Translations under genes and position numbers: made by a program
Notes under the pieces: generated by a model
Told to the model about the DNA's origin: nothing
What the model saw: only the letters and a program-made list of their open reading frames with translations
Database searches by the model: none
Part shown: positions 52,679 to 54,506 of the stretch, piece after piece
Numbering within the stretch: the first letter of the stretch is position 1
Layout of the letters: the number at the start of each line of letters is the position of its first letter
Assembly (NCBI GenBank): GCA_963835065.1
Contig: CAWIEK010000009.1
Location: 64,001 to 128,000 of the forward strand
DNA length: 64,000 nucleotides
Source: an uncultured Chthonomonadaceae bacterium
Lineage (GTDB): Bacteria; Armatimonadota; Chthonomonadetes; Chthonomonadales; Chthonomonadaceae
Direction: 5' to 3'

Positions 52679-52879
52679 CTTCTACCCTCATCCGGCCTCC
52701 GGCCACCTTCTCCCTGCAAGGGAGAAGGCCAATGTGGTAGTCTGGTGCGCTGATTGTGGAGTTGGTTGGTGTATAAGGTTCGCGCGCTCGTTTCCCATCC
52801 CTAATACAACCGCCCACTGAATAGTTTAGCCTTCTCCCTTGCAGGGAGAAGGTGGCCGGAGGCCGGATGAGGGTAGAAA
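52679..52879. repeat. Inverted pair of CCGGCCTYCGGCCACC-family elements
   Basis: ttctaccctcatccggcctccggccaccttctccctgcaagggagaaggc and its reverse complement. Confidence 0.88.
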
Positions 52880-52884
52880 CTCCC

Positions 52885-52919
52885 AAAATAAAAGAGGCTC
52901 TTCATTGCTGAAGGGCCTC
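52885..52919 (-). terminator. Intrinsic terminator of tRNA-Leu
   Basis: Minus strand: GAGGCCCTTCA-GCAA-TGAAGAGCCTC-TTTTATTTT. Confidence 0.85.
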
Positions 52920-52922
52920 CGA

Positions 52923-53230
52923 TGCGGGGAACGGGACTCGAACCCGTACGTCTTACGACCCAGGTTTTTCTTACCACTACAGTTTTCACTGCCCGTAAGG
53001 TTTGTGGTCTGGACCATACCTTCTCCATATCCCATAGGATTTAGGAGGTTTCCATCTGGCCTCTACACCTTCTCAAGGGAACGAATTTGTATTCCCTGAG
53101 CTTGGCTCGGTATTGCCATGTTAAATTCTAACGAAGGGTTCACCGAATTTGGAAACTTCTACATTGAACTTTTCAGTTCAAGCACTCAATTTGTTTAAGA
53201 CCTGTGCGGCTGCCATTACGCCACCCCCGC
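52923..53230 (-). tRNA. trnL: tRNA-Leu(UAA), intron-containing; exons 53230-53197 and 52969-52923
   Basis: Acceptor GCGGGGG/TCCCCGC+A; anticodon stem CAGGT/ACCTG with spliced loop CTTAAAA; variable arm GTC-GTAA-GAC; T arm ACGGG-TTCGAGT-CCCGT; CCA not encoded. Confidence 0.96.
52970..53196 (-). ncRNA. Group I self-splicing intron (IC3-like), 227 nt, no ORF
   Basis: Follows U34 and ends in G; P1 CUU/GAG; P3 GTTTCCA/TGGAAAC; P4 TTCGGT/ACCGAG; P7 G-A-GGCCA/TGGTC-C. Confidence 0.93.
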
Positions 53231-53253: not shown

Positions 53254-53283
53254 ATTATAACCCTCTGCCCTCCTTTCCGTCAA
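53254..53283 (-). promoter_or_regulatory. Sigma-70 promoter of tRNA-Leu
   Basis: Minus strand TTGACG-N18-TATAAT, 23 nt upstream of the tRNA 5' end. Confidence 0.8.
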
Positions 53284-53375: not shown

Positions 53376-54506
53376 ATGGTTCTAACGCCTGCTTCTCAAC
53401 AGCCCATGAAACGTTTTCTTGTGTGTATTCCCGATTCTAAAGTGGGCGATTTTTTGATGAGCGTTCCGACGCTTGCGGCTTTGCGCGCGCATTTTCCCGG
53501 CTGCCATATCGCGCTGCTGCTGCGCCGCCCCGATCCCGGCGAGTGGCTGACGCGGCATCCCCTGGTGGACGACATCATCTGGTGCAATCCTGACGACCAT
53601 ACCCGCCGTCAGGGAATGGCAGGCGTGGTACGCGAGTTACGCAAGCGCAAGTTCGATGTGGCGATTTATCGCGGACGCAACGCGCATTTCGTCTGGATGT
53701 TCTGGCTGGCGGGCATCCCCATGCGGATCGCCGGTTCCAACCGCTACTACAAATTCCTGATTACGCACAACACAGCCTTTAACCGCGAAACTCCTGACCG
53801 TCACGAACTGGTGTATAATCTGGAGCAGTTGCGTCCGCTTGGCATTACGGCTCCCGATACCGCCATGCGCTTTCCCGTTTCGCTACAGGAGCAAGCGCAG
53901 GCAGACGCACTTTTGCGCGAACAAGGCGTTCAGAACGGCAATACGCTGATTGCCATTAATCCGGGCTACGCGGGCAGTTCGCGCCCCTGGCCTGCCGAAC
54001 GGTTTGCCGAAGTGGGCAAGCAACTTGCGGCGAAAACGGGCGCGCGTATTTTAATTGTCGGGCGCAAGGGCGACGCGCAAATGGAAAACGGGTTTTGCGA
54101 GAGTTATCGGCTCGGCCTGCGTGGACCTGACCGGCAAAACTTCCGTGCCCCTGCTTGCCGCCATTTTGCAGCGCTGCCGACTGCACATCAGCATTGACAC
54201 GGGCACATCCCATCTCGCTGCGGCGATGGACACGCCCAATGTCACGCTTATTTCCCTATATCAAGCATTGGGAGCAGCGCATTCGCTGGCGTCCCTGGCA
54301 GACCGAATCGCAGCAACGCTTACTCGGCCCGCTTGTACGCTGCGCAGGGTGTGCGCGGCGCTGTACCAAAACGGAAAACGCCTGCGTGGACAGCATTACC
54401 GTTGCGCAGGTGGTTGACTGCCGCGCTGGATTTGCTGGCTTCCACTGCTGATACCACGCGCAAGATAACGGATGAGACAACGGCTTCCGAGGTGACATTG
54501 GCGTGA
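53376..54506 (+). CDS. Glycosyltransferase family 9 (heptosyltransferase-like), three +1 frameshifts
   Basis: KVGDFL; IAINPG..WPAERF; DLTGKTS; ISIDTGTSHLAAA in a shifted frame; the repaired frame ends in a TGA overlapping the next GTG. Confidence 0.85.

Follow-up and report, generated by a model that had tools for sequence, protein, structure and literature searches.

A Group I Intron in a tRNA-Leu(UAA) Gene of Armatimonadota

Organization of the Split tRNA-Leu(UAA) Gene

A tRNA-Leu(UAA) gene of 308 nt lies on the minus strand at positions 53230-52923 of the window, as the whole 64,000-nucleotide (64-kb) stretch of DNA analysed here is called, and is interrupted between U34 and A35. The parts of the gene and the control elements predicted around it are as follows.

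53254..53283, minus strand: promoter-like site of the sigma-70 type (predicted), TTGACG-18-TATAAT, 11 of 12 consensus positions
53197..53230, minus strand: 5' exon of tRNA-Leu(UAA), 34 nt, ending in C32 U33 U34
52970..53196, minus strand: group I intron, 227 nt, starting with A and ending with the terminal G at 52970, 42.7% G+C, no ORF longer than 26 aa
52923..52969, minus strand: 3' exon of tRNA-Leu(UAA), 47 nt, long variable arm, discriminator A73, CCA not encoded
52885..52920, minus strand: terminator-like hairpin followed by a U-run (predicted), fold -16.2 kcal/mol, z -2.4

The 227-nt insert is confirmed as a group I intron. It matches the Rfam model RF00028 with 53.4 bits (E 9.8e-11), passing the gathering cut-off of 50 bits by 3.4 bits, and is the only Rfam match within the 64-kb window. 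Only one of the nine registers that excise 227 nt combines a U at position -1 with a G at omega, and this register yields an 81-nt tRNA-Leu(UAA) cloverleaf with a long variable arm; the insertion between U34 and A35 given in a preliminary description of this DNA is thereby fixed to exact coordinates. The longest ATG-initiated reading frame inside the intron comprises 26 aa, short of a homing endonuclease. ARAGORN called no tRNA at all in the window when run without its intron search, as had been anticipated for standard tRNA callers, and with the -i option returned tRNA-Leu(taa) i(35,227); both checks proposed beforehand, the Rfam group I model and ARAGORN with intron detection, thus gave positive results. 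Passages of the tRNAscan-SE 2.0 paper describe that tool, too, as not designed to detect such introns.

The preliminary description had also read the locus as a complete promoter-tRNA-terminator unit, which holds in part. The identical two promoter hexamers precede the tRNA gene in both congeners (G001 and G002) and the hairpin folds, but one promoter match of this quality is close to chance level, with shuffled sequences averaging 0.8. A consensus terminator scan did not list the hairpin at 52885..52920. A GT9 glycosyltransferase gene adjoins the tRNA gene in the window, in G002, in the family member G016 and at 6 of 28 intronless-tRNA loci; since it stands beside alleles with and without the intron, the tRNA-Leu(UAA) locus is native. 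The flanks of the G001 gene differ from the GT9 arrangement.

Between an esterase gene and the tRNA terminator lies a 197-bp element (window 52681-52877) with 49-bp terminal inverted repeats. At least six similar paired copies of 158-198 bp with variable middles occur elsewhere in the genome, and the element is MITE- or REP-like. The first GT9 gene (window 53376-54451) is broken over two frames and is a single ORF in G002, and rpoB of this genome (G000:C48) is found in six pieces, so that the assembly (71 contigs, 92% complete) likely carries indel errors.

Ribozyme Fold and Covariation

The following helices can be drawn within the intron and its exon borders.

53185..53199, minus strand: P1 (CUU/AA with UUGAG), with the pair U34.G53187 at the 5' splice site; U.G in 37/37 homologues
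53164..53181, minus strand: P2 hairpin TTGAACT-GAAA-AGTTCAA with a GAAA loop; two-sided changes at 7/7 pairs
53048..53156, minus strand: P3 pseudoknot, 53156-53151 with 53053-53048, enclosing P4, P5 and P6-P6a
53146-53141/53112-53107, minus strand: P4, within the P3 pseudoknot
53138-53116, minus strand: P5, within the P3 pseudoknot
53106-53067, minus strand: P6-P6a, within the P3 pseudoknot
53011..53063, minus strand: P7, 53063-53057 (A53062 bulged) with 53016-53011
53024..53046, minus strand: P8, with a CCUAAA/UAUGG motif resembling the 11-nt GAAA-tetraloop receptor
52973..53008, minus strand: P9.0 (ACCAC/GUGGU), enclosing a CC-UUAC-GG hairpin and P9 GCAGU-GAAA-ACUGU

All helices named in the preliminary description (P1 with its U.G pair, P2, P3, P4, P6, P7, P8 and a branched P9), together with the terminal G, are present and are backed by covariation in 37 homologues. 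In the alignment of these 37 Leu(UAA) introns, taken from 52 candidates, 95.8% of cells are paired and 33 of 53 pairs show two-sided changes. Slid controls pair in only 30-42% of cells, and none of 500 shuffles attained the observed pairing and covariation values, a result inflated by kinship among the sequences. The pseudoknot core from P3 to P7 is almost invariably formed, with 99.5-100% of cells paired in P3, P4, P6 and P7 across the 37 sequences. Pairing is weak in P5 (43%) and outer P1 (70%), probably owing to misalignment.

The P4 and P7 sequences had been singled out as divergent, and neither assessment is supported by comparison with homologues. The UCGGU/ACCGA form of P4 is the majority type, with U-A at the pair concerned in 26 of the 37 introns. 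In P7, where the core shows its only unusual feature, the third pair is G.U here, adjoined by a C-G swap, and among the homologues it is A-U in 29/37 and G.U in 8/37. This GGCCA/UGGUC form is common to the intron and that of congener G002, was found again in 120 further stretches (117 from metagenomes and 3 viral), and is spread over Thr, Arg, CAU, Asn-type and Leu tRNAs. A uniquely divergent P7 is ruled out by the recurrence in 120 other stretches and in 8/37 homologues; judged from these comparisons, the P7 G.U is a tolerated variant.

The pair G53061-C53012 in P7 is presumably the guanosine-binding pair expected from established group I structure. From its consensus, we likewise take the CCUAAA/UAUGG motif of P8 to be akin to the 11-nt GAAA-tetraloop receptor, and the two GAAA loops with receptor-like motifs presumably are a feature in common with the Azoarcus pre-tRNA-Ile intron. 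Introns of subgroup IC3 have a compact fold with a GNRA loop on P2, a receptor in P8, a short P5 and a GNRA loop on P9. The corresponding elements, namely the P2 GNRA loop, the receptor-like motif of P8, the short P5 and the P9 GNRA loop, are visible in this intron, a possible IC3 member, and the classical tRNA introns are filed under IC3 (Williams 2020, 10.1101/2020.01.27.920355).

Host Lineage

A record labelled Chthonomonadaceae (Armatimonadota; L021) contains a relative of the neighbouring GT9 protein with 79% identity, as well as the same intron-split gene. The gene, the intron and the flanking genes are found in both G002 and L021, and the split gene also occurs in G001, so that all three genomes of the genus have it (the two others at 87% and 68%). 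The three congeners form a clade in the RpoB tree (support 100/96). Taken together, the labelled relative with the same split gene, the split gene in the congeners and the RpoB grouping place the host outside the cyanobacteria, as the preliminary description had supposed.

Relation to Known tRNA Introns

Group I introns of bacterial tRNA genes were surveyed by Williams (2020, 10.1101/2020.01.27.920355), who counted 5,292 intron-split tRNA genes in 21 settings, among them 72 same-site Leu.3Cg introns, all in Proteobacteria. The present intron corresponds to the Leu.3Ug setting of that survey: in tRNA-Leu(UAA) it is inserted behind the third base of the loop as CUU/a...g/AAAA, has U(-1) and omega G, is shorter than 400 nt and matches RF00028. 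It may differ from the published set in its host, as Armatimonadota are not named in those portions of the main text of Williams (2020) that were available. The earlier recognition of a compact group I ribozyme at the cyanobacterial and plastid trnL(UAA) site is thus upheld. The claim that it is unusually divergent or novel is not supported, since same-site introns outside the cyanobacteria are published and were found in other Armatimonadota, in another phylum, in phages and on a plasmid. The finding is a new host lineage, Armatimonadota, for a known class of bacterial tRNA intron, and the site itself is classical.

The cyanobacterial and plastid tRNA-Leu(UAA) intron, the subject of Xu et al. 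(1990) and Zaug et al. (1993), shares with this intron the gene, the site and very short P1 and P10 helices. The two differ in host. Synechococcus elongatus, used as a control, matches RF00028, and searches of plasmid and viral sequences found no intron identifiable as cyanobacterial. The 205-nt Azoarcus pre-tRNA-Ile intron, in the portion of the account consulted (PMC13168695), is likewise a compact anticodon-loop ribozyme whose P1 combines the 5' exon with an internal guide and whose guanosine pocket is a G-C pair. In contrast, the intron described here occupies another tRNA and another site, is 22 nt longer, and has an additional hairpin in the P9 domain and a G.U in P7. A literature search combining Armatimonad, tRNA and group I intron returned only unrelated work. 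A Leu(UAA) intron in a gamma-proteobacterium was reportedly described by Vepritskiy et al. 2002 (J. Bacteriol.).

Distribution of Same-Site Introns

Within the family, the Leu(UAA) intron was found in 5 of 42 genomes and an intronless gene in 28 (27 with the intronless gene only, and G016 with both), and 10 genomes yielded neither. In an RpoB tree of 37 genomes, G017, the sister of the genus, is intronless, and the intron state needs three changes, which the unrooted tree does not separate into gains and losses. Same-site introns are found at three separate points of the family tree, and further families of the same phylum also contain them. The intronless alleles of relatives have the same CUUAAAA loop. 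A single locus in the family offers alleles with and without the intron, a useful resource for the old question of whether tRNA introns were inherited from ancient times or spread laterally.

Across the phylum, the Leu junction pattern was found in 6 of 401 sampled genomes; exact patterns overlook variants, and these and the other intron counts are lower bounds. Two of the six introns, about 740-750 nt long, encode HNH-type proteins. Such ORFs were located in the same-site introns of G310 (L361:967-1458; Pfam HNH and HNH_3 above cut-off) and G313 (L362:854-1363; HNH below cut-off), and the 700-nt same-site Leu(UAA) intron of phage LR756511 (L041) also has an HNH-type ORF. In G310 and LR756511 the reading frame is located in the P6 region, in G313 in the loop of P1. 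The table of Haugen lists a single endonuclease from a tRNA intron, which belongs to the PD-(D/E)XK type.

Beyond the phylum, the intron was found at the same site in 2 of 151 genomes of a second phylum (that of G413, whose locus is labelled Acidobacteriota). The Leu-junction pattern was found in none of 151 genomes of the phylum of G415, and an RF00028 search of G413-G415 gave no match in the three. At least 120 IMG/VR viral stretches have a same-site intron, as do the jumbo phages Agrobacterium phage Atu_ph07 and LR756501, and a metagenome search with the exact 3' junction of the present intron found none. The phage and plasmid Leu(UAA) introns (Atu_ph07, LR756501, pCTX-M3, IMG/VR) share site and fold with this one; for the named introns and those most similar to it, 65-76% of aligned columns are identical. 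They differ in lying on mobile DNA, in being unannotated in the Atu_ph07, LR756501 and pCTX-M3 records, and in that some have an HNH-type ORF. Literature screened by title and start of abstract held nothing on jumbo-phage tRNA introns, on HNH proteins with tRNA introns or on the plasmid case.

The plasmid pCTX-M3 (NC_004464.2; L038:2860-3158), the one record opened among 1,249 that matched the plasmid query, contains an unannotated complete tRNA-Leu(UAA) gene with a 213-nt group I intron that scores 36.8 bits with RF00028, below the cut-off. The gene aac(3)-IId is about 650 bp away, and the split tRNA gene may be left over from the chromosome of the donor of that segment.

Two forms of tRNA-Leu(UAA) body coexist in the family (f1; L053-L080). 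A long variable arm is found in 13 of 28 intronless genes, and a short form of 73-75 nt with a short variable loop in the other 15 and in the intron-bearing G011 and G016. Mapped onto the RpoB tree, the two forms require five changes, and each has examples next to GT9 genes. A literature search on the short-variable-loop form found nothing relevant.

Origin of the Intron

We regard it as very probable that the locus is an ORF-less group I intron at U34/A35 of a chromosomal Armatimonadota tRNA-Leu(UAA) gene, likely self-splicing and likely gained in the ancestry of the genus. The source of the intron is addressed by comparing exons and introns separately. The exons of the window gene are closest to those of G001 (75/81 identical, 93%), against 57/81 for L252 and 48/81 for L266, two metagenome loci with the closest introns found outside the genus. 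For the intron the order is reversed: pairwise identity is 72% to G001 and 85-86% to L252 and L266, and in the multiple alignment 66% as against 75-76%. A maximum-likelihood tree groups the introns of the window, G002, L252, L266 and the viral locus L148 (96/95), with G001 apart. The window intron also has 42.7% G+C, compared with 57% for the locus and 56.5% for the G001 intron.

These observations would fit a scenario in which the intron common to this genome and G002 either took the place of that of G001 or was acquired independently of it, the source being a phage-borne pool of Leu(UAA) introns. The contigs of L252 and L266 are AT-rich with tRNA clusters, that is, phage-like. We regard this as a possible though rather doubtful account, because several points weigh the other way. 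Approximately unbiased (AU) tests do not reject the grouping of all three congeners in a single clade (p 0.26 and 0.74; in the latter the constrained tree outscored the free tree) and are compatible with simple inheritance, while only one weak PHROG match was found among four L252 and L266 proteins. The intron trees span just 117-200 columns, over which low G+C can draw AT-rich sequences together, and the comparator introns were retrieved with patterns derived from this intron and are a biased sample. The multi-isotype tree contains 103 of 161 unique cores, the Thr rows being randomly thinned from 47 to 12 and the viral Leu rows from 58 to 35, with isotypes assigned from 3'-exon starts. Replacement by a phage intron, if true, would support phages as vectors of tRNA introns. 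It is speculative to go further and propose that giant phages are the reservoir, that HNH-encoding introns home into host tRNA genes, and that a phage intron displaced a resident same-site intron within the genus; the site of the classic 'ancient' Leu intron would then be one that is invaded again and again.

An intron ancestral to the family or older, followed by many losses, is improbable. It would account for the three separate occurrences of same-site introns within the family and for those in further families of the phylum; counts of changes do not part gain from loss. Against it stand the 27 of 42 family genomes that are intronless only, compared with 5 bearing the intron and 10 with neither. 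Moreover, the G011 and G016 introns group with those of other families and another phylum, apart from the window intron, and the AU test gives p 0.058 for keeping all five family introns in one clade.

Splicing and UUA Decoding

The ribozyme would be expected to follow the chemistry described for group I introns, in which attack by guanosine precedes exon joining (Williams 2020; and, in the parts consulted, Hausner 2014 and PMC13168695). By analogy with that chemistry, a free G would bind the G-C pair of P7 and attack 3' of U34, held in the U.G wobble of P1. The terminal G would next occupy the P7 pocket, and the 3'-OH of U34 would attack the 3' splice site to join U34 to A35. P1 has only five pairs and P10 about two, and because both are short the anticodon stem of the tRNA likely aids exon alignment. 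Such help from the anticodon stem is reportedly given in the Anabaena intron. In the IC3 architecture the P2 and P9 loops dock on P8 and P5, and the GAAA loops of P2 and P9 likely do so here. CCA would be added after splicing.

A need for splicing is suggested by the tRNA set of the genome. The assembly contains Leu tRNAs with the anticodons CAG, GAG, CAA and TAG, which cannot read UUA under standard wobble rules. ARAGORN, a pattern search and a custom scan that recovered 5/5 controls found no intronless tRNA-Leu(UAA) in the assembly, which at 92% completeness and with frameshift-type errors could lack a second such gene. Of 84,914 Leu codons, 3,253 (3.8%) are TTA, and 1,027 of 1,252 long ORFs contain this codon, counted on raw ORFs of which some may be spurious. 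With no other UUA reader found, the gene is likely essential and its intron likely active; splicing is likely required for UUA decoding, and the intron itself is intact and likely self-excising. The failure of default tRNA calling explains why a default annotation would show a genome without a UUA-reading tRNA. Most likely the intron is a nearly neutral passenger whose integrity is maintained because the decoding of UUA depends on this tRNA. Homing is the likely means by which its ancestors spread, given that HNH-type proteins are still encoded in two same-site introns of the phylum. A single query for a homologue of the G310 HNH protein found none in this genome.

Read data came from three runs (X1, X2 and X3, with shares of 0.05, 0.05 and 0.33). 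X1 contained related introns, 85-95% alike, and X2, labelled as RNA, covered just the repeat next to the gene. One contig from X3, a run of unstated type, omits exactly 227 nt; other X3 contigs run across the promoter and look like DNA, and an intronless DNA allele accounts for the skip as well as splicing does.

It is very improbable that the ribozyme is impaired or protein-dependent, with its P7 G.U and short P1, or that the gene is a relic. The predominance of A-U at the third P7 pair and the narrow 3.4-bit passage of the Rfam cut-off would suit such a reading, but the same P7 change is present in G002 and in 120 other stretches with several tRNA isotypes, every core helix pairs, and the searches revealed no backup gene. 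Contamination from a cyanobacterium or plastid, or an artefact of the fragmented, error-prone assembly, can be dismissed, as it is contradicted by independent genomes, with gene, intron and flanks recurring in G002 and L021, the split gene in G001, neighbours syntenic with family relatives and RpoB within the genus.

Other tRNA Introns and tRNA Genes

A second group I intron is present in the same genome (G000:C37:50062-50414; L001). It is 281 nt long, scores 70.1 bits with RF00028 and follows U33 of a tRNA-CAU gene, which ARAGORN mis-assigns as Leu(CAA). Transfer of the Leu(UAA) intron from this tRNA-CAU intron was considered and set aside: the trees put the latter in a separate CAU clade (97), and an AU test does not reject the transfer (p 0.30). 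Related CAU introns occur in G001, in G002, in four other family genomes with this tRNA type and in many genomes of family f29. In G001 the CAU intron is enlarged by a long insert that contains an antisense ORF of 153 aa; HNH-like motifs can be seen by eye in this ORF, which has no Pfam HNH match.

In metagenome loci L204-L320, group I introns interrupt tRNA-Thr(GGU) (61 loci) as well as Arg(UCU), Asn-type and CAU tRNAs; they probably belong among the 17 new settings of Williams. Elsewhere in the genome, 16 tRNA genes are packed into about 2 kb (G000:C49:430274-432286), an arrangement typical of a mobile tRNA array, and no Leu(UAA) gene was called within it.
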